Below, one piece after another: positions 32,660 through 63,670 of a stretch of 64,000 bases of DNA; within the stretch, counting starts at the first letter, position 1; every line of letters starts with the position of its first letter. Position numbers and translations under genes: made by a program. The stretch is taken from NCBI GenBank assembly GCA_016789645.1, contig JAEUQP010000041.1:1570-65569 (forward strand). The letters run 5' to 3'. A model generated the notes under the pieces. The model searched no databases, had not been told where the DNA came from, and saw nothing but the letters and a program-made list of their open reading frames with translations. The DNA is from Acidobacteriota bacterium (GTDB lineage Bacteria; Acidobacteriota; Blastocatellia; RBC074).

Positions 32660-32745
32660 GCCGGGGTGGTGGAACTGGTAGACACACAGGACTTAAAATC
32701 CTGAGACTCGAAAGGGTCGTGCGGGTTCGATTCCCGCCCTCGGCA
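32660..32745 (+). tRNA. tRNA-Leu (anticodon TAA), type II with long variable arm
   Basis: Acceptor stem GCCGGGG/CCTCGGC, anticodon loop CTTAAAA, long extra arm, T-loop GGTTCGATTCC. Confidence 0.8.
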
Positions 32746-32766: not shown

Positions 32767-33990
32767 TTACTTGCAGCGCGACTTGTCGTTTCTGTCCACG
32801 GATTGGCCAATCTGCGCCAGAGTTTGCGCTGCGCGGCCCATCGCCCCCGGCGTGTGATGCAGATAATGCGCAATCAATTCCTTGGCCGTGTGCCCGGTGA
32901 TTTGCCCGATGGTGTCAAAATCCATGCCGGCATTTGCCAATCGCGTCGTCACGGTGTGTCGAGTGGTATGGAGCACAACTCCGTCGGCGGTGCGCTTGCC
33001 ATACGGAATTTCGCATTGTTCACATGCCGTTTTCAGAATTCGATAAAATTTGGGATAGATTTTTCCACTGGCGCCAAACACAAACGCGCCGCGCTTTCCC
33101 TGCTCCGCTTCGGCCAGCACGTCGCGCATCGGTTCCGTAATCGGGATCTGCTTGTAACGGTCTGTTTTGGCCTGGTAGATCAACACCCGCCCATTGTCGC
33201 GGTCAATATCCGTCCACCGCAATCCAACGATTTCCGAATGACGCGCGCCGCTGAGCATGGCGAATTGCAAAATCCAGCCAACCCGGACGCGAGCCTGGTG
33301 CGCGTTGTGGCGATTTTGCGCCCGCGCGTCGCCGTCCAGGGCATCCGGCGGACGGCGAAGCCAGGTCAACAGCCGGACATACTCTTCTTCGCTGAGAATT
33401 CGTTCGCGGCGAGATTTTTTAACTTTTAATCGAGGAATGCGCGGCGGTCGCCAAGAATTTAATTCCGGAAAAAAACTGGCGGCGGCGTTCAGGGTTGCCG
33501 CGATCACGTTCAGTTCCCGGTTGACACTCGACGCGGCCTGTCCCTGCTCAGTCCTGAGCGTGGCGTATTGGCGAATCTGAGGCGTTTCCAGCCCCTCCAC
33601 CGTCACCGGCGATTGATACCCTCCGACAGGGCAAAATCGTTCGTCTAGCGTCACCAGCGGGTCCAGCAACCGCAACCAGGTAAACAGCACTCGCCGGGCG
33701 CGAGACCGTTCGGCAGTCGGCGTGATGGTGGCCAGCCGGAGGGTGATCAGTTGCTGCAACCGAGGCCGGTCTTTGGCCAGCGCAAATCCGTATCTGGCTG
33801 CCCGCTCGGTTTCCCGGATGGCGGCAATGGCGCGCTCCGCTTCCGCGCGCGAAGTGAATCCCTTGGTTCGAACCCGCCGGCGTGGCTTCCCTGCTCCCTG
33901 AGAAATGCGAATATCAATTTCCCAGACCGGGTTCCCGGCTTCGTCGAAGAGTGGTTTTTTGTCCAGTCCTTTTGCTCGTTTAATGGCCAT
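32767..33990 (-). CDS. int: Tyrosine-type site-specific integrase
   Basis: C-terminal catalytic region HTTRHTVTTRLANAGMDFDTIGQITGHTAKELIAHYLH (R..H..R..Y type); adjacent to the tRNA 3' end; start at ATG 33990 (MAIKRAKG). Confidence 0.85.
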   Translation of the reverse strand: MAIKRAKGLDKKPLFDEAGNPVWEIDIRISQGAGKPRRRVRTKGFTSRAEAERAIAAIRETERAARYGFALAKDRPRLQQLITLRLATITPTAERSRARRVLFTWLRLLDPLVTLDERFCPVGGYQSPVTVEGLETPQIRQYATLRTEQGQAASSVNRELNVIAATLNAAASFFPELNSWRPPRIPRLKVKKSRRERILSEEEYVRLLTWLRRPPDALDGDARAQNRHNAHQARVRVGWILQFAMLSGARHSEIVGLRWTDIDRDNGRVLIYQAKTDRYKQIPITEPMRDVLAEAEQGKRGAFVFGASGKIYPKFYRILKTACEQCEIPYGKRTADGVVLHTTRHTVTTRLANAGMDFDTIGQITGHTAKELIAHYLHHTPGAMGRAAQTLAQIGQSVDRNDKSRCK

Positions 33991-34000
33991 AAAACACAGC

Positions 34001-34045
34001 AAAAACCAGTACTGATTTCAGTCAAAAAATCAGTACTGGTTTTTT
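34001..34045. promoter_or_regulatory. Palindrome (17-bp arms, 10-nt spacer) with ATCAGTACTG core, upstream of int
   Basis: AAAAACCAGTACTGATT-tcagtcaaaa-AATCAGTACTGGTTTTT; shares its core with the 61-bp palindrome at 34468-34528. Confidence 0.5.
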
Positions 34046-40204: not shown

Positions 40205-40915
40205 ATGCCTGTTGAATACACAGTCGCTGAATCGGTTCGGGATTTTGCCGATCAGCTCATCAAGAATCATCACCCGCACCTGACAAACGTCAAAATCGAA
40301 TACGTGTTTCGATCTCAAGCGGCGACCAAAAACGGCAAGGCGATTTGGGGCAGGGCAAAACTGGTAACCGGTTTGAATGCTTGGTTGGCGACGCCGATGA
40401 TTCAGCGATGGAACCGGCCAGAACCGTTCTTTTGTCTCGAAATTGCTCGCGATATTTGGAGCCGGCTTAACGAGAACCAGCAAAAAGCACTTGTAGACCA
40501 TGAACTGAGTCACTGCGACCGCGATCTGGATTCCGGCGATTTGACGATCGTCGGTCATGACCTGGAAGAGTTTGCGCATATTTTGCGCCGGCATGGTCTC
40601 TGGCATAGCGACGTAGAGATGTTTGCAAAGACAGGCGCTGAGCAATTGTCACTACTCTCAATCATTGAACAACGCGCCGAAACCGCCGATCTGGCCGAAA
40701 CGGTGACCATCCAGCGACTAAACGGGCAGTCGCTGACACTGTCACGGGAAGAATTACTGAGCGCGTTTTACAAACTGGAGGCTGAATCCAAACTCGGCAT
40801 TGTGCTGGACTCCAAACTCGGCACTGTGCTGGACAAGGTCACAGAGCGCATCAATAGCGGCTCACTGGATAGTGACAGTGTGACCGTCACTGCAAAGCGA
40901 ACTACTTCAAACTGA
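40205..40915 (+). CDS. Putative phage metallopeptidase (HExxH)
   Basis: VDHELSHC contains HExxH; architecture typical of phage 'putative metallopeptidase' proteins. Confidence 0.55.
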   Translation: MPVEYTVAESVRDFADQLIKNHHPHLTNVKIEYVFRSQAATKNGKAIWGRAKLVTGLNAWLATPMIQRWNRPEPFFCLEIARDIWSRLNENQQKALVDHELSHCDRDLDSGDLTIVGHDLEEFAHILRRHGLWHSDVEMFAKTGAEQLSLLSIIEQRAETADLAETVTIQRLNGQSLTLSREELLSAFYKLEAESKLGIVLDSKLGTVLDKVTERINSGSLDSDSVTVTAKRTTSN

Positions 40916-41448: not shown

Positions 41449-41578
41449 AGAGCGGTTTTTCCGCGCGTGGAAGGCAGGTGTCTTGGCAGGTCTCATAAGC
41501 CCGCTTCAGGCCGGTTCAAGTCCGGCACGCGCAATCGAGACTGGATGACTTGGTTGAGCTTCAAGACGGTCTCCAAAA

Positions 41579-50478: not shown

Positions 50479-51027
50479 GTGAAAACAATCATCGTCTGCG
50501 CCGGGCATAGCGACCAACAAAGTGGCGCGGTATCGCCAGACGGAAAATACAAAGAAGAAGACCTTGCTCAGCGGCTCCGCAATCGGGTGGCGACGCTGTT
50601 GCGCGCGGATGGCCAGTTCCGCGTGTTGACCGATGGCGGCGACAGGGAAAACAAACCGCTCCGCGATGCGGTGCAACTTGTGAAAGCAAATCCCGGCGCA
50701 CTGGCGATTGAGATCCATTTCAACGCTGCCAGCCAGCCGTCGGTGAAAGGCGTCGAAGTGCTGAGCAAGCCCCAGCATAAACTGCTCGCTCAGCAGTTGG
50801 CGTTTTCGATTGCAGAAATTACCGGCTCGCCCTTGCGAGGTGTGCTCGGTTGGAGGGCCGACAATGCCGGGCAGCACCACCGGCTGGCCTTTTGCGAAGT
50901 GGGCGGGGCGATCGTCGAGGTTGAATTCCTTTCAAACCCGGACGCGCTGACCCAGTATTTAACCCTTGAAAGCGAAGTGGCTATTTCGCTTGCAAACGCG
51001 CTGCGCGATGCAGCGAAAGGAGTGTGA
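50479..51027 (+). CDS. N-acetylmuramoyl-L-alanine amidase (Amidase_3), candidate endolysin
   Basis: IIVCAGHSD...LAIEIHFNA...AIVEVEFLSNP motifs of the Amidase_3 family. Confidence 0.7.
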   Translation: MKTIIVCAGHSDQQSGAVSPDGKYKEEDLAQRLRNRVATLLRADGQFRVLTDGGDRENKPLRDAVQLVKANPGALAIEIHFNAASQPSVKGVEVLSKPQHKLLAQQLAFSIAEITGSPLRGVLGWRADNAGQHHRLAFCEVGGAIVEVEFLSNPDALTQYLTLESEVAISLANALRDAAKGV

Positions 51028-51505: not shown

Positions 51506-52174
51506 ATGGCAACCCCCCATGCTAAATCCAAATCCGCCAAACCTGATGCTGCTGCCAGTCGCACGTGTGGCGCGCGACTGAAACGCAAACCCGGCGCCAA
51601 CTGCTCCAAAACGGCCGGTTGGCGAACCGATCACCCAGGCCAGGGGCGCTGTTATTTGCACGGCGGCGCGACGCCGATCAAGCACGGACGCTACTCCAGC
51701 GTGCAGCGGATAGATTTTCGCGAACGCATCGCCAAATTCGAAGCCGACCCCGACCCGCTCAATCTCGCGCCGGAAGTGGCGTTGCTGCGCGCCTTCGTCG
51801 AAGATTTCGTGGATCGCTGGGAAGCGATTTACGGCCCCACTGGCGCTTTGCTCGCCTGGCACGAATCCTTTCACACCGGCGAAGCGCCGGCAAAACCCAA
51901 GCAGTTGCCGGACTTCAGCGCTTTAACTGCCCTGGTGGATCGCGTCGGCAAAATGGTCGAGCGCATCCATAAAATGAAAAACGAAGGCGCGATCACCCTC
52001 CAGACCTTGAATCGCGTCGTCGAGCAGATGGGCGCGGATCTCGTTGCAGCAATCCATGAGACAGCAATCCCTCAAGATCAAGCTGACCGGCTTCTCGAAA
52101 ACGTCGAACGCCGGTGGCAATCCATCAAACTTGACACCCGGCCAGTTGGCGGTGCAGGGACTTCGGCGAGCTAA
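51506..52174 (+). CDS. Putative terminase small subunit (assigned by position)
   Basis: Immediately upstream of and overlapping the large terminase; N-terminal Cys/His cluster CGARLKRKPGANCSKTAGWRTDHPGQGRCYLHGG. Confidence 0.4.
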   Translation: MATPHAKSKSAKPDAAASRTCGARLKRKPGANCSKTAGWRTDHPGQGRCYLHGGATPIKHGRYSSVQRIDFRERIAKFEADPDPLNLAPEVALLRAFVEDFVDRWEAIYGPTGALLAWHESFHTGEAPAKPKQLPDFSALTALVDRVGKMVERIHKMKNEGAITLQTLNRVVEQMGADLVAAIHETAIPQDQADRLLENVERRWQSIKLDTRPVGGAGTSAS

Positions 52175-53600
52175 ACACGCCAACGTGCGCCTGGAATCTA
52201 TTTGGACGCCGCAGCCCGGCCCGCAATTGCAGGCGTATGACAGCGACGCAGACGTGATTGGGTATGGCGGAGCGGCAGGCGGAGGAAAGACCGATTTACT
52301 GATTGGGTTGGCATCTACCCGGCACCGACGAGCCATCATCTTTCGGCGTGTTTTTCCCAACGCCCGTGCCATTATCGAACGATCCCGTGAAATCTTTGGC
52401 GACGAGCCAACCTTCCGATACAACGAAACTTTGCATCTGTGGCGACTAGGCCAGGGACACATGCTGGAAATCGGCGCGATGCAATACGAAGACGATAAAA
52501 AGAATCACCAAGGCCAGGCGCGTGACTTTATTGGCTTCGATGAAGCAACCGAATTCACGGAGACTCAAGTGCGATTTGTGATGGGCTGGAATCGTTCGAC
52601 GGTGCCGGGGCAAAAGTGCCGTGTGGTGATGACGTTTAATCCACCAATGGATGAACAGGGGGATTGGGTTACTCGTTTTTTTGGGCCGTGGTTGGATTCG
52701 GTTCATCCGAACCCTGCTGCCGACGGCGAAGTGCGCTGGTTTGCCACAGTGGACGGAAAGGAAATCGAAACCGGTTCTGAGCCTTTTGAGCACAACGGAG
52801 AGACGATTACACCGAAATCGCGCACTTTTTTTCACGCAAAACTCAGCGACAACCCTATCCTGGAAGCAACTGGCTACGCCGCAACGATTGACGCGATGCC
52901 GGAGCCGTTGCGCAGCTTGCTGAAAGGGAATTTTGATGCGGCCCGAGCAGCGGATTCCCGGCAATTGATTCCGACGGATTGGATTAAGGCGGCGCAGCAA
53001 CGCTGGCGAGAGCAGATCAAACCGGAGACGCGGTGCGACGCATTAGGTGTGGACGTGGCGCGCGGTGGAGCCGACCAGACCGTCATTGCTAAGCGGTACG
53101 GCAACTGGGTTGCCAATTTGATTAAGGTGCCCGGAAAGGCCACACCGGACGGGCCATCTGTCGCCTCGCTTACGCTTCAGCATTACGAAGCCGGTGCAAA
53201 AATCTATCTTGATGCCATTGGAGTCGGGACGTCACCTCTCGACATTTTGCAGGCCAATGGTGCGCCAGTGATTCCGATCGTTAACTCCGAACGTTCGATA
53301 GCGATGGACAAGAGCCGCAAGTTGAAATTTCGCAACCTGCGCGCCGAAATTTGGTGGAAACTGCGCGAAGCTCTTGACCCGGCCAACGGTGACAATCTCG
53401 CGTTGCCGCCGGATAGGGAACTGCTTGCCGATCTAGCTGCGCCACGTTGGTCTATTACGATCAATGGCGTGCTGATCGAAAGCAAAGACGATATTAAAGA
53501 CCGGATTGGCCGGTCGCCGGATTGTGGCGATGCTGTTGCTATGGCGTGCTGGTTAGATCATCGCAATGCAGACTGGGGACAATTTGACTGGATTCGTTAA
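52044..53600 (+). CDS. terL: Terminase large subunit
   Basis: Walker A-like GYGGAAGGGKTDLL ATPase plus a C-terminal nuclease region; start uncertain (possibly GTG 52185). Confidence 0.8.
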   Translation: MQQSMRQQSLKIKLTGFSKTSNAGGNPSNLTPGQLAVQGLRRAKHANVRLESIWTPQPGPQLQAYDSDADVIGYGGAAGGGKTDLLIGLASTRHRRAIIFRRVFPNARAIIERSREIFGDEPTFRYNETLHLWRLGQGHMLEIGAMQYEDDKKNHQGQARDFIGFDEATEFTETQVRFVMGWNRSTVPGQKCRVVMTFNPPMDEQGDWVTRFFGPWLDSVHPNPAADGEVRWFATVDGKEIETGSEPFEHNGETITPKSRTFFHAKLSDNPILEATGYAATIDAMPEPLRSLLKGNFDAARAADSRQLIPTDWIKAAQQRWREQIKPETRCDALGVDVARGGADQTVIAKRYGNWVANLIKVPGKATPDGPSVASLTLQHYEAGAKIYLDAIGVGTSPLDILQANGAPVIPIVNSERSIAMDKSRKLKFRNLRAEIWWKLREALDPANGDNLALPPDRELLADLAAPRWSITINGVLIESKDDIKDRIGRSPDCGDAVAMACWLDHRNADWGQFDWIR

Positions 53601-53841
53601 ATCCTATTTCTGTAAGCCAACCGAGATCAAGTGTAACGCCGTAGTCATACCAGCCCTTACTTAACCACTTGCGGAGAATGAACCACGCTCGCTTATGGTG
53701 CAATGGAAAGTCGGGTGAATTGATGATCTCGCGGGGCGATTCGCGTCTAACGCATCCGCTCGACGTGTGATAGGTGCAACGGGCGAGCATTAACTGTAAG
53801 AACTGAATCTCATCCGATTTCATATATTTCAATTTTAGCAT
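53539..53841 (-). CDS. Reverse-oriented small ORF in the low-GC terL-portal spacer (possible moron)
   Basis: 100 aa, Trp/Lys-rich; only open frame in a ~370-bp AT-richer spacer; no homology recognisable by eye. Confidence 0.3.
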   Translation of the reverse strand: MLKLKYMKSDEIQFLQLMLARCTYHTSSGCVRRESPREIINSPDFPLHHKRAWFILRKWLSKGWYDYGVTLDLGWLTEIGFNESSQIVPSLHCDDLTSTP

Positions 53842-53972
53842 AATGGCTTGAAGGGATTCGCTGAAAATAAAATTTCACCCTCGCCGATACTCTCGGCACG
53901 GGTGAACCTCCTGAAAGGCGGTCACGAAAGAAGCGCTGAGAGCTTCTGCAATTGTGACCGCCGTTTGTTTCT

Positions 53973-55472
53973 ATGGCCGAAAATGCGCACAACCAGCCGG
54001 ATTTTGTTTGCAATGCGCGCCAGAAGATGGCGCGCCAGTGGACAATTGTCCGTGACGTTGCCGACGGAACCCTGCGATTGCGCGAAGTCGGCGCGCAATA
54101 CCTGCCTGCTGAAAAAGCGGAAAAAAGCGAAGCTTACGCCATTCGGCTCAGCCGGGCGATTTTATTCAACGCGCTGGATCGCACCCTGCACAGTCTGGTC
54201 GGCATGGTGTTTCGGAAGCCGCCGACACTCAATTCCGACGTGCCAGACGTGATGCGCGGACGCGCCGCCAGTGACGATGTCGCCGGCATGGAAGGCCTGC
54301 TGGAAGATGCCGACCTGGCCGGCAATCACTGGACAGTCGTCGCCAAAGAGCTGTTCACGGATGCAATGCGTGACGGCCATGCGTTTTTGATGGTGGACGC
54401 TCCGCCGTATCCCAAACGCGACGACGGGCAGCCGGCCACCTTGCAAGATTTGGAGCGAGAGCGATGGCGTCCGTATCTGGTGCGGTATCGCGCCGACCAG
54501 GCGATCAACTGGCGCACGGACAGCAAAGGACGATTGCTGCAAATCACGTTCGAAGAGAAAACCTGGGAAGCCGACGGCGAATTTGGCGAACAGGAAGTGT
54601 GCCGGTATCGCGTGCTTCGACCGGGGAGTTGGCAGGTCTGGCGAAAAATCAAGGATCCTAAAGGCGAAACAGAAACGCTGGTGCTGGACACGCTACCCAA
54701 CGGCCAGCCGGCGCGAGGGATCACGCCGTTGACGGAAATTCCGGTCGCGGTGGTGTACAGCCGGAGAACCGGCCCGCTGACCAGTCGTCCGCCGCTGCTC
54801 GATCTGGCGCTGGTAAACATTGCCCACTGGCAAAAGTATTCGGATTATTCCATCGGCCTGCATTTGACGATTCCGATTTTGGGATTGAAAGGCGGCAATG
54901 CGGATCAGAAAGTGCAAGCCATCGGCCATTACGTGGTGTTTCGGATTCCGCCCGATGGTGACCTGAAATATGTCGAACCCACCGGCGCAGGACTGGAGCC
55001 GCAACGCACCGACCTGATTGATTTGGAAGACAAAATGGCCGTGCTGGGCGCGGCAATGCTCAGCAAACGCACGCCGACACCCAAAACCGCGACCGAGGAA
55101 TTGCTGAGCCACGTCAAGGAAGAGTCCGATTTGGCGACTGCTGCGCGCAGCTTGCAGGACTGCCTGGAGCTGGCGCTGAGCTTTTTCGCAAAATACCTTC
55201 GGCTGTCGTCCGGCGGCTCTGTGACACTCGGCGCAACCGTCGAAGAGTTGACCTTGTCACCGGAGAAAGTGCGTGCGTTCGGGGAATTGGTAACCCTCCG
55301 CGTTGTCAGCAAGCAGACCGTGCGCGAGATTCTGGGGCAGGCCAACGAATTGCCGGACGATTTTGACGAGCAGCGCGAATTGCAGCGACTGGACCGGGAA
55401 GCTGCCGACGAAGAGGTGCGGCAACAGAATCTGGGAGCGGCGGCGCTGGCCGCCTTTGACCGCGGGCAATAA
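53973..55472 (+). CDS. Putative portal protein
   Basis: 499 aa, directly after the terminase and before the MuF gene; acidic C-terminus; assigned by position and size. Confidence 0.5.
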   Translation: MAENAHNQPDFVCNARQKMARQWTIVRDVADGTLRLREVGAQYLPAEKAEKSEAYAIRLSRAILFNALDRTLHSLVGMVFRKPPTLNSDVPDVMRGRAASDDVAGMEGLLEDADLAGNHWTVVAKELFTDAMRDGHAFLMVDAPPYPKRDDGQPATLQDLERERWRPYLVRYRADQAINWRTDSKGRLLQITFEEKTWEADGEFGEQEVCRYRVLRPGSWQVWRKIKDPKGETETLVLDTLPNGQPARGITPLTEIPVAVVYSRRTGPLTSRPPLLDLALVNIAHWQKYSDYSIGLHLTIPILGLKGGNADQKVQAIGHYVVFRIPPDGDLKYVEPTGAGLEPQRTDLIDLEDKMAVLGAAMLSKRTPTPKTATEELLSHVKEESDLATAARSLQDCLELALSFFAKYLRLSSGGSVTLGATVEELTLSPEKVRAFGELVTLRVVSKQTVREILGQANELPDDFDEQRELQRLDREAADEEVRQQNLGAAALAAFDRGQ

Positions 55473-55673
55473 TCGTGAAACGAACCCGGCGTCATCAATG
55501 TCAACGTAAGCAACAGCATTCGAGCAAGGGCGCGGCGGAGGCTCACTTGCGGTCTTTGGTGAAACGCTTCGATCTGCCTGCCGATCAGTTGAACGTCTAT
55601 TGCTGTGGCTGGTGCCGAAAGTGGCACGTCGGCCACACGCCAAAGCAATTGAAACGCAAACAATTGAAACGCA

Positions 55674-57389
55674 ATGCCGACCATTTATGACTTTGCCGAA
55701 CGATTTCGCGCTGCGTTGTTGGCGCGGGATCAATCCTCTGCCCGGCAATTGATTCAGGCCTACGGATTGGCCTTTACTCGGCTGCAAACCCAACTTTCTC
55801 AACTCACCACCCGAATCCAAAACGCACGCGCCGCCGGCGAGGAAATCACTCCGGCCTGGCTCCAGCGCGAAGAGCGATTCAAGGCCTTGATGCAGCAGGT
55901 TGGCGCGGAAATCGGCCAACTTGCAAATTTTGCAAACGATCTGATCTCTCTGGCCCAACAAGCCGAAGTCGAGCGCGCGTTGCGCGACAGCGGAACATTG
56001 CTGACTGCCGCGGCAGCAGACGCCGGCATTGTGGCCACGTTCAATCAGGTGAATCCGGGCGCGGTCGCCAGTCTGGTTGGCGCGCTGGGTGATGGGTCGC
56101 CGCTGCGGCGACTGCTCCAGCAATTGCCGGGGGATGGCCGCCGAGAGATTGAGCGTGCGCTGATTGAGGGCGTGACGCTTGGCGAAAATCCGCGCAAGGT
56201 GGCCCGCCGGATGCGTGACGCGCTCGGTGGAAACCTGACCCGCGCGCTGCGGATTGCGCGCACAGAACAGATTCGGGCGTATCGCGAAGCCAGCCGGGCG
56301 ACGTATCGGGAAAATTCCGATCTGGTGACGGGCTGGCAGTGGCTGAGCGCCCGACAAACGCGCACGTGTGCGAGCTGCTGGGCGATGGACGGGCAAATCT
56401 TCCCGGTCGAAACGCCGTTAGGGAGTCACCCGCAGTGTAGGTGTTCGATGATCCCCGTGCTGGAAAGCGCGCCACTCCGCGAAACCGGCGAACAGGCCTT
56501 TGCGCGATTGCCGGAAGCGCAGCAGCGCGAGATTTTGGGCGACGCCAAATATACAGCGTACCGAAATGGGGAAATTTCGCTGCGTTCCCTGGTCGGGTAT
56601 CGCAATGACCGGCGCTGGGGCGAAACCCGCTGGGAACGTGGCTTGAAAGACGCTCTCAGAGGGGAAATTGACGCACGATGGGGAACCGTGCCCGGCTTGG
56701 CCGAGCCGATTGCGACTGCACCGGCGGGACCGGCAGGCAAACCCATCGCTCCGGCGTTGAAACTGCCGGCGCGTGGCAACCTGGCGCGATTGGGGCGAAA
56801 CGTGCTGGGCATCATTGATCGCATTCATGGCGATGGCGATTTGCCGCTGTTGCCGGTTCGCGCAGTTTCCAACCGGCGATTTTTTGGCGCGTATTCGTTT
56901 TCCTTCAGCGGTCGCGCCGGAGAGATCATGATCAGCCGACAGGGCGATCATCCGGAACTGACACTGGCGCACGAAATCGGCCATTTCCTGGACCATCAAG
57001 GCGTACAAAAGGGAACTCACATGTCGGCTCGCTCTGACGTCTTTGCGGAGTTCCGGCAAGCAGCCGAACAGAGCCGGGCGATTCAGGAGATTCGACGGCT
57101 GGCCGCCACGCGCACGGTGTCAGTGACACTGGGCGAAGGCGATCCCATTGAATATCCGATTGACCGGGTTTATTTGAGTTATCTGCTCAAGCCGGAAGAG
57201 ATTTGGGCGCGGGCGTATGCGCAGTACATTGCCGTTCGCTCGGACGATCCGACGATGCGCGAACAATTAAATCAATTGCGACAGCGATTGGGCCAGGTGT
57301 ACTATCCGGCTCAATGGGACGATGATGAGTTCGAACCTATCGCCGAGGCGATGGATCGGCTGATGCTTCGTCTAGGATGGCGAAAATGA
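55674..57389 (+). CDS. Phage head morphogenesis protein (Mu F / SPP1 gp7 family) with C-terminal HExxH zincin-like domain
   Basis: MuF motif RIARTEQIRAYREA...TCASCWAMDGQIFPVETPLGSHPQCRCSMIP; the C-terminal ~250 aa contains TLAHEIGHFLDHQG (HExxH). Confidence 0.7.
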   Translation: MPTIYDFAERFRAALLARDQSSARQLIQAYGLAFTRLQTQLSQLTTRIQNARAAGEEITPAWLQREERFKALMQQVGAEIGQLANFANDLISLAQQAEVERALRDSGTLLTAAAADAGIVATFNQVNPGAVASLVGALGDGSPLRRLLQQLPGDGRREIERALIEGVTLGENPRKVARRMRDALGGNLTRALRIARTEQIRAYREASRATYRENSDLVTGWQWLSARQTRTCASCWAMDGQIFPVETPLGSHPQCRCSMIPVLESAPLRETGEQAFARLPEAQQREILGDAKYTAYRNGEISLRSLVGYRNDRRWGETRWERGLKDALRGEIDARWGTVPGLAEPIATAPAGPAGKPIAPALKLPARGNLARLGRNVLGIIDRIHGDGDLPLLPVRAVSNRRFFGAYSFSFSGRAGEIMISRQGDHPELTLAHEIGHFLDHQGVQKGTHMSARSDVFAEFRQAAEQSRAIQEIRRLAATRTVSVTLGEGDPIEYPIDRVYLSYLLKPEEIWARAYAQYIAVRSDDPTMREQLNQLRQRLGQVYYPAQWDDDEFEPIAEAMDRLMLRLGWRK

Positions 57390-57671
57390 TTGAAGGCAAA
57401 ACCGAACAAGAAACCGTCGAATTGACCGCGCGAGTGCTGGGCGTCAGCGAAGCCCAGGCGCGCATCATTATCGCCATCGAAACCGGCCAGATCGAAGGCG
57501 ACGAACTTCCCGCTGAAAAATAAACCTTGCCTGTTTGCTACTTTCCCGCTTGGACAACGAAAGGGTTTTTCCTTTACTGCAACTGGCCGCTGCGTCTGCA
57601 ATCAAACTCTTCTGAGTCGTGAACCCAGAGGCGGGCGCAGTGGTCAGTGTTTTTTTCTTTCCGAGGTTACG

Positions 57672-60600
57672 ATGAAAGTTCAACGCGCAATCGTCTTGTG
57701 TGTGTTGCTGCTGATGCCCCTGCTGGCGATGGCGCAACCTTCGCTCTGCACCATCAGCGGCACGCTGTACGACTCGACGGGGTCGGCCTGCTCCAACTGC
57801 AAGGTCACCATCAGCAAAGCCCGTCAGGGTTCCACGCCGCTAAACGCGCCGCCCATCGAAAAGCGCACCGACAGCAATGGCGCGGTCAGCTTCACGGCAG
57901 TGCAAGGATCGTTCATTACGATCACGGGAACGTTTTCGATTGGCCGGTATAACTTTGCAACCGGCCTGGAAATGTATGTGCCGCTGCAAAGCACGGCGAC
58001 CCTGGCCACGCTGCAAACGGCGGAAGACGCGCTCAATGCGTTGATTTCTTCGACCACGTATGCACCAGCAGACATTCCCGTTATCACGAAAACGGCCAGC
58101 GCCAGCCTGTCGAACGAATTCGCGCTCGGCTCGTTGGCAACCGGCCTACTGAAAAACACCACAACGACCGGCGTCCCGACGATTGCCGTCGCCGGGACGG
58201 ATTATGTTGCGCCGGGGGCGATCACCGGCGGCGGTCAGACAATGGCGACGGCGCGGATTCTGGGACGCTCGACCGCATCCACGGGCGCAATCGAGGAAAT
58301 CAGTATCGGCTCCGGCCTGAGCCTGAGCGGCGGCACGCTCAGCGCATCGGGTGGCGGCGCGGTGTCGTCTGTGTTTGGACGCTCTGGGGCGGTCGTCGCG
58401 GCGCAGGACGACTACACATTCGCGCAACTTGCCAGCAAGCCGACGACGTTGGCGGGATACGGGATTGCGGATGCCCAGCCGTTGGACGCCGACTTAACGG
58501 CGATTGCGGCACTCGGCCCCTCGAACGACGACATCATTCAGCGGAAGGCCGGAGTCTGGACGAATCGCACCGTCGCGCAGTTCAAAACCGATTTGGGGTT
58601 GGCCACGATTGCCACCAGCGGCAGCGCGTCAGATTTGAGCGCCGGGACTGTGCCGTTGGCTCGATTGGCAGGAATCACGAACACTGAAATCAGTAACAGC
58701 GCGGCCATCGCCTACAGCAAATTAAATCTGACCGGCGCGATCCTGAACGCCGATCTGGCTGGTTCGATTGCTAATGCGAAGCTGGCGAATTCCGCGATCA
58801 CGATTGCCGGGAGCAGTACCAGCCTGGGCGGTGCAATCACACTCGACACGATCACCGGCCTTTCAACGACCGGCGTCGTCAAGCGCACGGGCGCAAACAC
58901 ACTGGCGATTGCAACGGTAGATTTGACCAGCGAAGTGACCGGCGACTTGCCCTTTGCGAATTTCGTGCAGGCAGGAAGCGCGGGTTTCGTTGGCGCAACC
59001 GGCGCGGGCGATTACAGCCATCGAACGCCAACGCAGGTTACGGCGGCGCTGGATGCGTTCGTCGGCGATTCGGGCAGCGGTGGAACGAAGGGACTTGTAC
59101 CTGCGCCAACGGCGGGCGATGCGGCGGCGAATAAATACCTCAAGGCAGACGGCACTTGGGCGACGGTTTCAGGCAGCTCCGGCATTACCGTTGGCACAAC
59201 CACAATCACCAGTGGCACGTCTGGTCGCGTTGGTTACAACAATGCGGGCGTCTACGGTGAATATCCCGTAACGGGAACGGCGGGGAATGTGGTGCTGAGC
59301 GCGTCGCCGACGTTGACAGGGACGGTCGCAATGGCCGCGCAGACAAACAGCGGGACAATTGTGCAGACCAGCGCGAGCGCGACTGCGTTTGTGAGCGGGG
59401 CAAGTGGCTCAACGAATCCGGCTTTTGTGATTGACAACTCCACAGCAAGTCAGGCCAGCGGTTTGAAAGTCATAGGCAAAGCAGATGGAACCGCGCCAGA
59501 AATTGCAGCTATCAGCCGCACGCAAATCACCACTGCCCTTGCCGGAAATGGCTTGGCAATTACAGCAGACCCGGCCATCGCGGGCAGTTCCGTTGCGGGC
59601 GCGGCGGCTGGCGGCAGTGTGACGATTACGGCTGGGGCGGCGGCGCGGAACACAAGCGGGAATGCCGCAGGTGGGTCAATAAATCTCGCGCCTGGAACAG
59701 GAATTGGAACAGGTGCAGCCGGTGATGTGATTTTGACTCGCGGGAATCTAATTTTTGGTGCAGCAACTTCTGGGAACATATATCTCAGAAACACAGGTTC
59801 TGGCCCTTCTCTGTTCATCGGCTCAGCGGATGGAGCGGCAAATAATGCAGGCGTGTGGGTACAGCAAGTGTCATTCACGCAGTTGACATCTGACAGCGGA
59901 GTAGTAGTTGGAATACAAGCGGCGGGCAGCACCGGGATGTTTTTAGGTTCTGGTGTACCTGTTTATTGGAGCACTAATGCATCTAGTTCCACGACTGGAT
60001 TAAGAGACGCTCCATCTGTTGGATTTTTACCAAAAGCCGCAGGTGTACTTCGGCTGACCAACGGCTCCACCGGCGCAGGCTCGCTCGTTCTCGGCACATC
60101 CACAGTCGGCAGCATTGGCACATCCGGCGTTGGAGTCTTGGCGATTGCCAACGGCACAGCCCCGACCAGTAGTCCTGCCGATGAATTTCAACTTTACTCC
60201 GCCGACTCCGCAGCCGGTGACGCCAACGCATTCGCCCGCAACGAGGCGGGCGAAGTGAACCGCTTGACCGGGCTTTCCGCGCGCGTCTCTACGCAATTTG
60301 ACAAAACCAGCGACACCACGCTGGCCAACGTGACCGGCCTTTCCCGCAACGTGGAAGCCGGGCGCACCTACGCCTTTACAGCTGTCCTCTATACCACCTC
60401 CAATGTGGCAGGCGGCGTCAAGGCGGCCATCGGCGGCACGGCAACCGCAACCTCGATTATCTATCAAGCGGACGTGCTCGATGGTTCAACACAGGCCACA
60501 GTTGGAACCGCTCGCGCAACCGCACTGGCAACCACTGTCGGCGATGTGACAGCGGTTACGGCGGCGCGAATTACCATTACGGGAGCAATCGTTGTTAATG

Positions 60601-60701
60601 CTGCCGGTACGCTCACCGTCCAATTCGCGCAAAACGCCAGCAATGGCAGCGCGTCCAGCGTGCTGGTCAATTCCAGTTTTCAATTGATTCCGATTAGCTA
60701 A
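57672..60701 (+). CDS. Large secreted Gly/Ala/Thr-rich fibre-like protein (tail-fibre/adhesin-like)
   Basis: Signal peptide; 1009 aa; segments resembling tail-fibre motifs (VSSVFGRSGAVVAAQDDYTFAQL...LAGYGIADA); low-complexity G/A/T/S beta-helix-like repeats. Confidence 0.5.
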   Translation: MKVQRAIVLCVLLLMPLLAMAQPSLCTISGTLYDSTGSACSNCKVTISKARQGSTPLNAPPIEKRTDSNGAVSFTAVQGSFITITGTFSIGRYNFATGLEMYVPLQSTATLATLQTAEDALNALISSTTYAPADIPVITKTASASLSNEFALGSLATGLLKNTTTTGVPTIAVAGTDYVAPGAITGGGQTMATARILGRSTASTGAIEEISIGSGLSLSGGTLSASGGGAVSSVFGRSGAVVAAQDDYTFAQLASKPTTLAGYGIADAQPLDADLTAIAALGPSNDDIIQRKAGVWTNRTVAQFKTDLGLATIATSGSASDLSAGTVPLARLAGITNTEISNSAAIAYSKLNLTGAILNADLAGSIANAKLANSAITIAGSSTSLGGAITLDTITGLSTTGVVKRTGANTLAIATVDLTSEVTGDLPFANFVQAGSAGFVGATGAGDYSHRTPTQVTAALDAFVGDSGSGGTKGLVPAPTAGDAAANKYLKADGTWATVSGSSGITVGTTTITSGTSGRVGYNNAGVYGEYPVTGTAGNVVLSASPTLTGTVAMAAQTNSGTIVQTSASATAFVSGASGSTNPAFVIDNSTASQASGLKVIGKADGTAPEIAAISRTQITTALAGNGLAITADPAIAGSSVAGAAAGGSVTITAGAAARNTSGNAAGGSINLAPGTGIGTGAAGDVILTRGNLIFGAATSGNIYLRNTGSGPSLFIGSADGAANNAGVWVQQVSFTQLTSDSGVVVGIQAAGSTGMFLGSGVPVYWSTNASSSTTGLRDAPSVGFLPKAAGVLRLTNGSTGAGSLVLGTSTVGSIGTSGVGVLAIANGTAPTSSPADEFQLYSADSAAGDANAFARNEAGEVNRLTGLSARVSTQFDKTSDTTLANVTGLSRNVEAGRTYAFTAVLYTTSNVAGGVKAAIGGTATATSIIYQADVLDGSTQATVGTARATALATTVGDVTAVTAARITITGAIVVNAAGTLTVQFAQNASNGSASSVLVNSSFQLIPIS

Positions 60702-61578: not shown

Positions 61579-61610
61579 GCCGTGGTCGCAAGATCACGGC
61601 CCTTTTGTTC
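61579..61610 (+). terminator. Rho-independent terminator
   Basis: GGCCGTG-gtcgcaagat-CACGGCC followed by CTTTTGTT. Confidence 0.55.
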
Positions 61611-61698
61611 TCCCCAAAAAAATAAACAACCCTGGTTTGGCACAATCCTCGCCGTCGCAGCGGGAAGCTGCAAATTTTGCAAAGTCGAGGGATTCGAT

Positions 61699-62493
61699 AT
61701 GCCAGTCAAGCAGACATTTGACAAAAAAGAAGACGCGCCGGAATGGCTCCGGCCAATGCTGCTCGAAGACAACGGGAAGTTTGTTTTCGAAGCGGAAACC
61801 ACGGTGGAAACCGCCGGATTGAAAAAAGCGCTGGAAGCCGAACGCAAAGCCAAGGCGGATTTTGAAAAGGCTCTGAAAGCGGTCGAAGGAATTGACCCGG
61901 AAGAGCACAAGCGGCTCAAGGCGGAATTCGAAAAGGCCGAGGCCGAGAAATTGAAATCCAAGGGCGATTGGGACACCCGCGAAAAGCAGTTGCGGGAGCA
62001 ATTGGCCAAGGATCTGTCCGGGCGCGAACAGCAATACCAGGCCGAACTGACCAAACGGGATGAACGGCTGAAAAAACTGGAAGCGTCGCTGCACCGGGAA
62101 TTGGTGACAGCAAAACTTTCAGCGGAGATTGCGAAGCACACGCCCAACGTGGCGCCGTTACTGCTCGGCGCAGCGCCGTTTCTGAAGGTCGTTGAAACCG
62201 GCGATGAATTCGCCGTGCAGGTGGTGGACGACAAGGGCAATCCACGGTTCGCCAATGTCAAAGGCGACCCGTTTTCGATTGAGCACCTGGTCGAAGAGTT
62301 CAAGGCCAAGCCGGAATGGAAAGGTCTGTTTCCGGCTCCCGGCAGTGGTGGCGGCGGCGCGCCGTCTCAAAGCGCGGGCAGTGGCGGAGGAACCATCACG
62401 CTGACGCGCGAACAGGCAAAAGACCCGAACGCGTACCGGCAAGCCAAAGAAGCGGCAGCAAAGTCCGGCGCGCAAGTTGTAATTTCCGAATAA
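61699..62493 (+). CDS. Putative scaffolding protein
   Basis: Highly charged coiled coil (KALEAERKAKADFEKALKAVEG...) immediately upstream of the capsid gene; ATG 61699 with GAGGG ribosome-binding site. Confidence 0.5.
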   Translation: MPVKQTFDKKEDAPEWLRPMLLEDNGKFVFEAETTVETAGLKKALEAERKAKADFEKALKAVEGIDPEEHKRLKAEFEKAEAEKLKSKGDWDTREKQLREQLAKDLSGREQQYQAELTKRDERLKKLEASLHRELVTAKLSAEIAKHTPNVAPLLLGAAPFLKVVETGDEFAVQVVDDKGNPRFANVKGDPFSIEHLVEEFKAKPEWKGLFPAPGSGGGGAPSQSAGSGGGTITLTREQAKDPNAYRQAKEAAAKSGAQVVISE

Positions 62494-62539: not shown

Positions 62540-63670
62540 ATGGCCAACACATTAGGGGTTTACGATCCGATTTTTTATGCGCAGGAAGCGTTGATTTGGT
62601 TGCAAAACGCATTGGGAATGGCGACGCGAGTCCACCGCGGACACGACAAGGAACCGCAGCAAAAAGGCTCCGTGATTTCCATCTCTCGACCGTCCACCTT
62701 CACGGTTCAGGATGCCCCTTCGACGGCGCAAGACCTGAACACCGGTTCCGTCAATATCACGCTCGATAAATGGAAAGAAGTGAAGTTCAAGCTGACCGAC
62801 AAAGAGCTGAGCTTCACAACTGAAAAAATTATCGAAGACCATATTATGCCGGCGGCTTATGCGCTGGCTGATGATATTGACGCAAAACTGTGCGCGCTTT
62901 ACAAAGATATTCCCTGGTATCAGTCGGCCTCTTCGCCTGCCGCTGTTGCCGACCTGACGGCGCTCCAGCGGATTATGTTTACCAACAAAGTGCCAAATCG
63001 CAATCGCAGCCTGATGCTGTCTGGTGTGTTGCGAGAAGAGTTTTTGAACATTTCTGCTTTCAGCCAATGGCAAGGTGCAGGAACCGACGGTGTCAACACC
63101 CAGAAAGAGGGCGATCTGGGGATGAAGTACGGATTTGACACTTTCGCGAATCAGAATGCTCAAACTCATACGCAAGGCGTTGCGGCGGACGCAACCGGCG
63201 CGCTCAATGGTGCTGTGCTCAAAGGCGGAACAACTATTGCGTTTGATGGGGTCACCGCTGGTGGCACGTTCAAAGCGGGCGACACCTTTGTGCTGGCCGG
63301 AAACACGCAACGTTACAGCTTCACAGCCGATGTGACCGCCGATGGCGGCGGCGCTGTTGCCAGCGCGAGCATTACTCCGGCTCTGGTGCAGGATTACGCC
63401 GACAACGTCGTTATGACGATCAACCTGGTTGGCGGCGTCCAGTCTCTGGCTTTCCATAAAAATGCTTTTGCGCTCGCGATGGCTCCTTTGTCCGAAATGG
63501 GCAATCAGTTGGGCGCGCGCATTGCCACCATCACCGACCCGATCACCAGTCTGTCTCTCCGGTCACGCATTTACTACGTGGGCAACAGCTCCGAAGTGCA
63601 TGTAGCGCTTGACTGCCTGTATGGCGTCAAGACGCTGGATCCGAATCTGGCATGCCGGTTGGTTGACTAA
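62540..63670 (+). CDS. Putative major capsid protein
   Basis: 376 aa, directly after the scaffold gene; assigned by position, size and general coat-protein-like composition. Confidence 0.5.
   Translation: MANTLGVYDPIFYAQEALIWLQNALGMATRVHRGHDKEPQQKGSVISISRPSTFTVQDAPSTAQDLNTGSVNITLDKWKEVKFKLTDKELSFTTEKIIEDHIMPAAYALADDIDAKLCALYKDIPWYQSASSPAAVADLTALQRIMFTNKVPNRNRSLMLSGVLREEFLNISAFSQWQGAGTDGVNTQKEGDLGMKYGFDTFANQNAQTHTQGVAADATGALNGAVLKGGTTIAFDGVTAGGTFKAGDTFVLAGNTQRYSFTADVTADGGGAVASASITPALVQDYADNVVMTINLVGGVQSLAFHKNAFALAMAPLSEMGNQLGARIATITDPITSLSLRSRIYYVGNSSEVHVALDCLYGVKTLDPNLACRLVD

Follow-up and report, generated by a model that had tools for sequence, protein, structure and literature searches.

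Does a metallopeptidase-like domain at the C-terminus of a phage head-morphogenesis protein serve the capsid, or does it travel with the DNA to act in the next cell? The question is raised by a 571-residue MuF protein of an Acidobacteriota bacterium, encoded in a stretch of 64,000 nucleotides (nt) of contig JAEUQP010000041.1, which was analysed as a whole and is called the window here. The N-terminal part of the protein is a minor head module, the C-terminal part carries an HExxH motif and an open reading frame (ORF) of small size overlaps the stop codon of the gene. We read the protein as a modular MuF-borne zincin effector with a cognate partner, originating from a temperate phage, and assign to this reading a probability of roughly 0.6.

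A zincin-like domain behind a MuF module

The segment TLAHEIGHFLDHQG spans residues 430-443 of the protein and contains HEIGH at residues 433-437 (nt 56970-56984), in line with the canonical HExxH motif that the first-pass annotation had placed in the C-terminal module. The motif is not a chance occurrence, because a single HExxH is present in all 87 of the 87 homologs of the C-terminal part. D440 lies three residues past it, and E509 opens a second conserved segment, E-x-WARAYAQ, encoded at nt 57198-57224. Among 35 full-length relatives, D440 and Y515 are nearly invariant, and no variation occurs at H433, E434, G436, H437, E509, R513 and Q517. Three independent alignments give the same picture, in which the residues of the catalytic set are invariant or nearly invariant and an upstream V-H-G-D-G motif (H385 and D387) is conserved likewise.

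An AlphaFold2 model of residues 331-571, calculated with 30 homologs in the alignment, reached a predicted local distance difference test (pLDDT) value of 90.9 and a predicted template-modelling score (pTM) of 0.88, so that the separate C-terminal module of about 250 residues proposed earlier is a confidently folded unit in the model (pLDDT 91). In the numbering of the modelled domain, a helix (39-54) is followed by three strands (63-68, 75-79 and 85-91) and by the helix 97-113, which carries HEIGH at 103-107. An insert of short helices and a β-hairpin comes next, and then the helix 177-193 with the E-x-WARAYAQ segment. E509, the presumed third metal ligand of the E-x-WAR-x-YAQ motif, is thus located on the later helix of the model and is invariant or nearly so. 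A conserved P-V/I-S-x-A-L segment opens the domain and is also modelled with high confidence.

Profile and structure searches with the C-terminal part point in the same direction. Against the PDB, the family profile matches metalloproteases only, and the match is confined to the active-site helix; the hits include ADAMTS-5 (E = 4e-4), fragilysin-like enzymes, snake-venom metalloproteases, MMP-12, serralysin and ulilysin. Foldseek matches to the PDB are weak (E = 0.09-0.3, template-modelling scores of 0.35-0.41) and coherent, with Zmp1/PPEP, Certhrax, anthrax lethal factor and an IgA peptidase at the top, and the best BFVD matches are other MuF 'head morphogenesis' proteins (E = 1e-19). A phmmer search of the whole protein against PDB sequences returned only chance matches to de novo TIM barrels, which were discarded. 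Pfam MPTase-PolyVal, which we take to be PF18818, is not among the families that match the window protein at E <= 0.1, and the protein is not a member of that Pfam family. Searches of Pfam, PHROG and NCBIfam gave no match to the peptidoglycan peptidase families M15, M23 and NlpC. We conclude from the model and the conserved residues that the C-terminal domain is a gluzincin-type metallopeptidase domain with an intact predicted catalytic set. The Ct_MAD domain, tied by PMC5576092 to the C-terminal region of COG2369, was considered as a name for this part and is presumably the C-terminal domain of Mu gpF (MuF-C) instead.

No full Pfam model exists for the zincin, and the sole Pfam signal on the C-terminal domain is LPD1 (PF18796), a 'large polyvalent protein-associated domain 1' that was defined with its function unassigned (PMC5512222). 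It matches residues 503-567 (nt 57180-57374) with E = 7e-4 and 18-20 bits against a gathering threshold of 27, and 14 of 30 relatives also match it, the best with E = 5e-7. These scores make the window protein a remote relative of the LPD1 family or a member at its edge. The matched region begins just before the conserved E-x-WAR-x-YAQ helix and covers the last 70 residues or so; therefore, LPD1 appears to be the C-terminal helical part of the zincin, including the presumed third ligand. This indicates that LPD1 is part of a metallopeptidase domain and not an independent helical domain. An LPD1-bearing protein of phage phi24B is abundant in virions (bioRxiv 10.64898/2026.04.10.717836).

The N-terminal part was assigned to the Mu F/SPP1 gp7 family over about 330 residues in the first-pass annotation, and two curated models confirm this above their cut-offs. 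Pfam Phage_Mu_F (PF04233) matches residues 158-260 (nt 56145-56453) with E = 1.2e-15 and 58.7 bits against a cut-off of 29.6, and NCBIfam TIGR01641 (phageSPP1_gp7) matches with E = 4.7e-17 and 62.3 bits against 39.65; the same half is also matched by more than 15 PHROG families for 'minor head / head morphogenesis'. Both motifs quoted for it are present, CASCWAMDG at residues 232-240 and HPQCRCS at residues 252-258, and C232, C235, H252 and C257 of the CxxC...H...C motif are invariant in the 35 full-length relatives. An Acidobacteria protein from a metagenome-assembled genome (MAG), annotated as 'minor capsid protein' (P0088), is 100% identical to the window protein over its full length.

The full-length AlphaFold model has lower overall values (pLDDT 77.6, pTM 0.44) and consists of two folded parts, with pLDDT below 50 at residues 342-351. 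Orthologs that have another tail, or lack one, align by BLAST only up to about residues 328-340. The domain boundary that had been drawn near residue 330 is therefore right, and the low-confidence linker lies between two well-folded parts. Five MuF orthologs (P0094, P0097, P0117, P0155 and P0175) contain an intein (PF14890), and their alignment to the window protein ends at about residue 232-255, just before the HPQ-C-RC motif (Cys257). The large terminase subunit of an 82%-identical relative (L168:3706-6234) likewise contains an intein.

Tail exchange, the partner ORF and the spread of the family

With the full-length protein as query, 150 relatives were obtained, of which 118 were analysed. 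Their N-terminal 330 residues align end to end with 31-100% identity, and the MuF module is common to all of them regardless of the tail, which differs. The 71 tails of at least 90 residues fall into more than 20 unrelated clusters. The present zincin accounts for 37 of the 71, a second HExxH tail type for eight and a third for two; the third is a distant homolog of the present zincin (hhalign 87% over 125 columns). Single examples include an ATLF-like zincin (PF07737), a Zeta-toxin kinase (PF06414) and about 15 other unrelated tails, and about 40 of the MuF orthologs are essentially tail-less. The closest N-terminal relatives (66% and 60% identity) include some with a different tail, and some relatives at 35-45% identity carry this zincin; in all, close orthologs at 38-66% identity have unrelated tails or none. 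The tail is thus not a conserved structural extension of the MuF orthologs, because near relatives differ in it while distant ones keep the zincin, and the variability of MuF C-termini put forward earlier holds for this family.

The exchange can be followed in a related prophage (L166) that is syntenic with the window. Its large terminase subunit (TerL) is 69% identical to that of the window, its portal protein 46%, residues 1-340 of its MuF protein 60%, the next large gene 57% and the scaffolding protein 49%. Between these syntenic genes, the tail and the small ORF are both unrelated to those of the window. The tail and the small ORF are exchanged together, as a cassette, between related prophages. 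A scan for promoters and terminators around the zincin-partner cassette gave nothing above background.

The small ORF had been noted as a 45-codon frame overlapping the MuF stop codon as ATGA. It is present in this form from a second in-frame ATG at 57386, which is preceded by AGGA 9 nt upstream, and has 48 codons from the first ATG. In 59 of 88 loci the start of the longest ORF falls 12 nt before the stop codon ends. Wherever the sequence was read, in the window and in relatives, codon four of the partner ORF is an ATG that shares ATGA with the stop codon, an arrangement suggestive of translational coupling. A partner profile was built from eight downstream ORFs, iterated and searched against 35,906 six-frame segments (2.67 million residues) from 164 related loci and the window. 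It matched 106 segments, all on the same strand and directly after the zincin gene, and nowhere else. The family is present in 103 of the 160 zincin loci with enough downstream sequence, including free-standing chromosomal zincins, and is absent after orthologs with other tails or none. The earlier suggestion of a cognate partner is thus borne out by a conserved family that is exclusive to this zincin. For example, the partner follows the zincin of the 82%-identical ortholog (L168), and it is absent after L166, where a different zincin tail is followed by its own unrelated 77-residue overlapping ORF, and after a tail-less MuF gene (L167). One protein (P0247) is a natural fusion, in which the partner motif lies in frame between two zincin domains; a homolog search aimed at natural zincin-partner fusions gave one irrelevant match only.

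The consensus of the partner reads ...E-x-x-I-x-x-x-M-x-x-x-G-x-x-x-x-x-A-x-F-x-x-A-I-E-x-G-E-x-x-G-D-V... and continues into an acidic tail. In its G-x-x-x-G-D motif, G41 is nearly invariant, and G37 and D42 are fully so. The partner has no match in Pfam, PHROG or NCBIfam, and scattered weak matches to UBA, Jag_N and helix-turn-helix families were rejected as inconsistent. Its profile resembles a single HEAT-like (alphaRep) helical hairpin with E = 1e-9, and the partner is therefore probably a two-helix hairpin, with the G-x-x-x-G-D motif at its end. A mirror-tree comparison (Mantel) gave r = 0.42 for zincin against partner and r = 0.48 for zincin against the MuF N-terminus, so the signal is that of shared phylogeny and says nothing specific about zincin-partner co-evolution. 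Other small ORFs that overlap the stop codon follow other tails or divergent zincins (L166:7874-8107, L003:11185-11424, L081 and L127), among them a 77-residue ORF ending in ...DLGGEIL... after a type-B zincin tail and a MADE..DSDYSGRP family. These unrelated ORFs are possible alternative partner families.

The zincin itself is widespread. A profile search of 1.84 billion cluster representatives (clusters at 50% identity) returned 3,475 proteins with E <= 1e-3, of which 1,454 reach E <= 1e-30; the zincin nearly always forms their very C-terminal end. By pattern scanning, 335 loci were identified in IMG/VR and, in GTDB (one genome per species), 160 loci from many phyla, but only two of 50,697 GenBank phage records, the Akkermansia phages Chantilly and Chambord, in which the proteins are annotated 'head morphogenesis'. 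Nearly all of 80 viral loci have an N-terminal extension of 180-700 residues before the zincin, and the few without one are genes truncated at the end of a contig. Among 127 such extensions, viral and genomic, 82 match Phage_Mu_F, four Phage_min_cap2 and three a Mu-type portal, and their alignment consensus also displays the MuF motifs. No fusion to Rhs, type VI secretion or contact-dependent inhibition proteins turned up, and no search aimed at them was made. Two or three tandem copies of the zincin occur in P0206, P0207, P0209, P0337, P0215 and P0247, of which P0215 has 3,154 residues and two copies.

In bacterial genomes, 26 of 80 loci were scored as free-standing, with proteins of about 210-250 residues (a few truncated by contig ends). 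They belong mostly to Armatimonadota (Capsulimonadaceae) and Chloroflexota, at times with several copies per genome, and their neighbours are housekeeping genes such as those for class II ribonucleotide reductase, EPSP synthase and an aminoacyl-tRNA synthetase. In three Capsulimonadaceae genomes (L021, L032 and L054) the zincin-partner pair lies directly downstream of class II ribonucleotide reductase; one Chloroflexota MAG has five copies of the zincin with its partner (L044, L045, L046, L053 and L083), and one Thermomicrobiales MAG has three to four (L011, L049 and L070), two of them in tandem in L070. This distribution suggests that the free-standing pairs are domesticated or independently mobile modules.

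Readings of the zincin-partner pair

The MuF proteins SPP1 gp7 and 80alpha gp44 are minor head or ejection proteins; they reside at the portal and are released together with the DNA (PMC5512222; PMC12323379). By analogy with these two, residues 1-330 of the window protein would bring it into the procapsid beside the portal. The flexible linker would tether the zincin with its predicted catalytic set, H433, E434, H437 and E509, with D440, R513 and Y515 nearby. Delivered together with the DNA, the protease may then cleave a protein in the newly infected cell. The acidic partner of 45-48 residues, made by coupled translation, would bind the zincin in the producing cell or lysogen and keep the protease inactive. 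The effector reading accommodates the tail polymorphism, the cassette exchange and the fact that the partner is linked exclusively to this zincin; within it, we consider the chances even that the partner is an inhibitor or immunity protein.

Four points weigh against the effector reading or its parts. First, the partner is kept across phyla, which is unusual for immunity proteins. Second, about a third of the zincin loci have no recognizable member of the partner family and have other small ORFs there; 17 of the downstream ORFs at these loci form one cluster (eight of them listed, each from a separate locus) that shares the closing theme of the partner, ending in ...I-x-I-x-x-G-G-D-V, and a few other types occur. 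Third, given the HEAT-like profile of the partner, its Gly-Asp may form a turn of the fold and not serve in metal binding. Finally, the free-standing pairs occupy a conserved chromosomal site in Capsulimonadaceae, and the module therefore has some function independent of phages.

A wider proposal would account for the phage-borne and the chromosomal copies jointly; we regard it as tentative and, taken as a whole, rather unlikely. According to it, the zincin and a partner of 45-60 residues would make up a two-gene module that is autonomous, in which a protease is accompanied by a latency factor encoded separately and coupled to it in translation. The invariant Gly-Asp of the partner might cap the catalytic zinc as an astacin-type aspartate switch acting in trans. 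Phages would repeatedly have put the module on MuF, so that an inhibited protease is loaded into capsids and freed only after ejection, and Armatimonadota and Chloroflexota would retain domesticated chromosomal copies. LPD1 would then be the metal-ligand half of a large, unrecognized family of peptidases comprising about 3,500 clusters at 50% identity.

Alternatively, the zincin may be a self-processing peptidase that cuts its own chain at or near the linker and thereby releases or activates MuF or itself, with no host target. Such a role has been proposed in general for the metallopeptidase domains of polyvalent proteins (PMC5512222), and the flexible Pro/Ala linker, the conserved and confidently modelled P-V/I-S-x-A-L segment at the start of the domain and the existence of tandem-copy proteins, including the one of 3,154 residues, would all suit it. 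However, the window protein has two domains and no other cargo to release, the free-standing copies of 210-250 residues have nothing to process in cis, and a dedicated conserved partner is easier to explain as control of an activity in trans. We therefore consider self-processing improbable.

The zincin could also act during assembly, processing scaffold, capsid or MuF in the procapsid in place of a dedicated prohead protease. No prohead protease of the HK97 or ClpP type was seen between the portal and capsid genes, 'head maturation protease' is the label of some PHROG families matching the MuF part, and metallopeptidase domains have been proposed to process proteins before or after packaging (PMC5512222). 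This role is difficult to reconcile with the roughly 40 close MuF orthologs that do without a tail, with the Zeta-toxin kinase or unrelated tails found in otherwise syntenic head modules whose scaffold and capsid families are the same, and with the zincin and partner that stand free among housekeeping genes with no phage genes nearby; we hold it to be about as improbable as self-processing.

A third alternative is an enzyme of the cell envelope, in which the ejected zincin would cut peptide stems of peptidoglycan or an envelope protein and so aid DNA entry. A preprint on phi24B suggests this role for the metallopeptidase domain of an LPD1-bearing virion polyvalent protein (bioRxiv 10.64898/2026.04.10.717836), but the window domain shows no likeness to M15, M23 or NlpC in Pfam, PHROG and NCBIfam, the prophage already has a separate endolysin, and the role is hard to square with a partner or inhibitor in the cytoplasm and with free-standing cytoplasmic copies that lack signal peptides, which makes this explanation very unlikely. 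Lastly, a non-catalytic structural extension of MuF with HExxH as a relic, for which the reportedly inactive C-terminal domain of phage Mu gpF offers a precedent, is scarcely credible for a family of 3,475 cluster representatives with HExxH in 87 of 87 homologs, H433, E434, H437 and E509 invariant and D440 and Y515 nearly so, a conservation pattern of active enzymes.

Prophage setting and comparison with known systems

The coordinates of the gene, its parts and the neighbouring phage genes are collected in Table 1. The order in the head module is a TerS-like gene, TerL, portal, an ORF of 71 residues, MuF-zincin, the small ORF, an ORF of 1009 residues (from 57672), two small ORFs, scaffold and major capsid, and MuF-zincin thus occupies the canonical slot after the portal in a packaging and head module. 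Replication genes also lie upstream of this module, as do the endolysin and the integrase. Phage genes continue from the tRNA-Leu and integrase (32.7 kb) to the end of the window, and beyond the tRNA-Leu there are ordinary bacterial host genes, including an epimerase and an ABC transporter. Since the integrase abuts the tRNA-Leu and host genes lie beyond it, the window contains the left part of a prophage integrated at tRNA-Leu, and the junction is likely to be both the attachment site and the left boundary of the prophage. A megablast search of positions 52000-60700 against GenBank phages gave no match.

Table 1. Positions in the window of the MuF-zincin gene, its parts, the partner ORF and the surrounding prophage features.
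Feature	Position	Strand	Basis or remark
MuF-zincin fusion gene, 571 aa	55674-57389	+	Uninterrupted ORF
MuF N-terminal carrier module, aa 1-330	55674-56663	+	Pfam and NCBIfam matches
Pro/Ala-rich inter-domain linker, aa 331-352	56664-56729	+	Low pLDDT, end of homology
Zincin-like (gluzincin-type) metallopeptidase domain, aa 353-571	56730-57386	+	AlphaFold2 topology, invariant residues, profile matches
Small acidic partner ORF	57377-57523	+	48 aa from ATG 57377, or 45 aa from ATG 57386
tRNA-Leu	32660-32745	+	ARAGORN
Tyrosine integrase gene	32767-34002	-	Pfam Phage_integrase, E = 3e-21
Endolysin	50479-51027		Upstream of head module
TerS-like gene	Starts 51506		First in head-module order
Large terminase subunit (TerL)	52044-53600	+	phrog_979 and phrog_2
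Portal protein gene	53973-55472	+	phrog_145, E = 9e-100; Pfam DUF4055
Scaffolding protein	61582-62493	+	phrog_206, E = 5e-31
Major capsid protein	62540-63670	+	phrog_283, E = 5e-68

Several other genes of the prophage deserve mention. The 71-residue Cys-rich ORF between portal and MuF (55475-55690, plus strand) contains CCGWCRKWH, matches phrog_14788 with E = 1e-10 and overlaps the start of MuF by 17 nt. The 1009-residue ORF (57672-60701, plus strand), which comes after the MuF cassette and before the genes for scaffold and capsid, has an N-terminal signal peptide and is rich in Gly, Ala, Ser and Thr; it has no match in Pfam, PHROG or NCBIfam. Its first 300 residues or so are 57% identical to an 876-residue gene product at the same position in L166, and L168 has at that position a gene for 1716 residues with a weak match to DUF5907. 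The location of a secreted-looking giant protein in a head module is odd. The prophage also has its own tRNA-Met (41462-41534) and, in its early region, a second, unrelated metallopeptidase gene (40205-40915, plus strand; Pfam PhageMetallopep, PF18894, E = 7e-29).

Fusions of MuF to metallopeptidases with small downstream ORFs have already been described (PMC5576092; PMC5512222), and the architecture is not new in kind. In full-text literature searches of limited coverage we found no description of a conserved partner family of this zincin, of autonomous chromosomal zincin-partner pairs or of LPD1 belonging to a metallopeptidase. Of what this analysis adds, the conserved partner family is the most interesting: its exclusive pairing with the zincin makes the two a candidate protease-inhibitor (immunity) pair, and the family gives a means to annotate small 'hypothetical' ORFs by the thousands. 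Temperate phages are believed to inject MuF-borne effectors with their DNA, and almost none of these effectors has been characterized. The locus is a clean two-domain example from the poorly studied phylum Acidobacteria, and its zincin family is abundant in metagenomes and almost absent from sequenced phage isolates.

Compared with SPP1 gp7, Mu gpF and 80alpha gp44, the N-terminal 330 residues of the window protein belong to the same family and the gene has the same position after the portal. The C-termini differ: as far as is known, those proteins have no extension, an inactive RNase-like one (Mu) or DNA-end binding (80alpha). To our knowledge, none of the three carries a zincin.

In the metallopeptidases of polyvalent proteins, the core consists of a helix at the N-terminus, a sheet of three strands, the helix with HExxH and, further on, a Glu-bearing helix, and its inserts vary (Iyer et al. 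2017, PMC5512222); a widespread phage-type clade among them has an Asp three residues after HExxH. The window domain shows the same core with its inserts between the HExxH and Glu helices, and D440 corresponds to that Asp. MuF is a hub domain in those proteins, the C-terminal 70 residues or so of the window protein match LPD1, and relatives of its zincin include multi-copy proteins, one of 3,154 residues. In contrast, the window protein has only two domains, on which a role in multi-domain processing has little to act, and LPD1, of unassigned function there, is here the C-terminal part of the zincin with the presumed third ligand. Profile comparison has linked the polyvalent metallopeptidases to lethal factor (PMC5512222). 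Anthrax lethal factor and Zmp1/PPEP (MEROPS M34) share with the window domain the arrangement of HExxH and a downstream Glu and are its best, though weak, structural matches; there is no sequence-level match, and the relation is one of fold class, not of family membership.

The partner invites comparison with the aspartate switch. In the astacin pro-peptide F-E-G-D-I, the Asp binds the catalytic zinc, and aspartate-switch latency also occurs in fragilysin and karilysin (PMC9629494). The Gly-Asp of the partner lies in a similar E/D-x-G-D-V/I context (IEGDEL in the window), a resemblance of a short motif only. The inhibitory segment of those enzymes is an N-terminal pro-peptide of the same chain, whereas here it would be a separate gene product.

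The closest known systems are the MuF polymorphic toxins of temperate phages, among which metallopeptidases made up 20% of those surveyed (Jamet et al. 2017, PMC5576092). Firmicutes and Proteobacteria prevailed in that survey, whereas the host here is an Acidobacterium, the tail is a zincin with no full Pfam model and one partner family is conserved across phyla. The likeness is one of genes and architecture, with a putative toxin role for the window protein: both have a prophage MuF N-terminus encoded beside the portal gene, a variable enzymatic C-terminus and, directly downstream, a small ORF of fewer than 150 residues that is exchanged with the tail between related phages.

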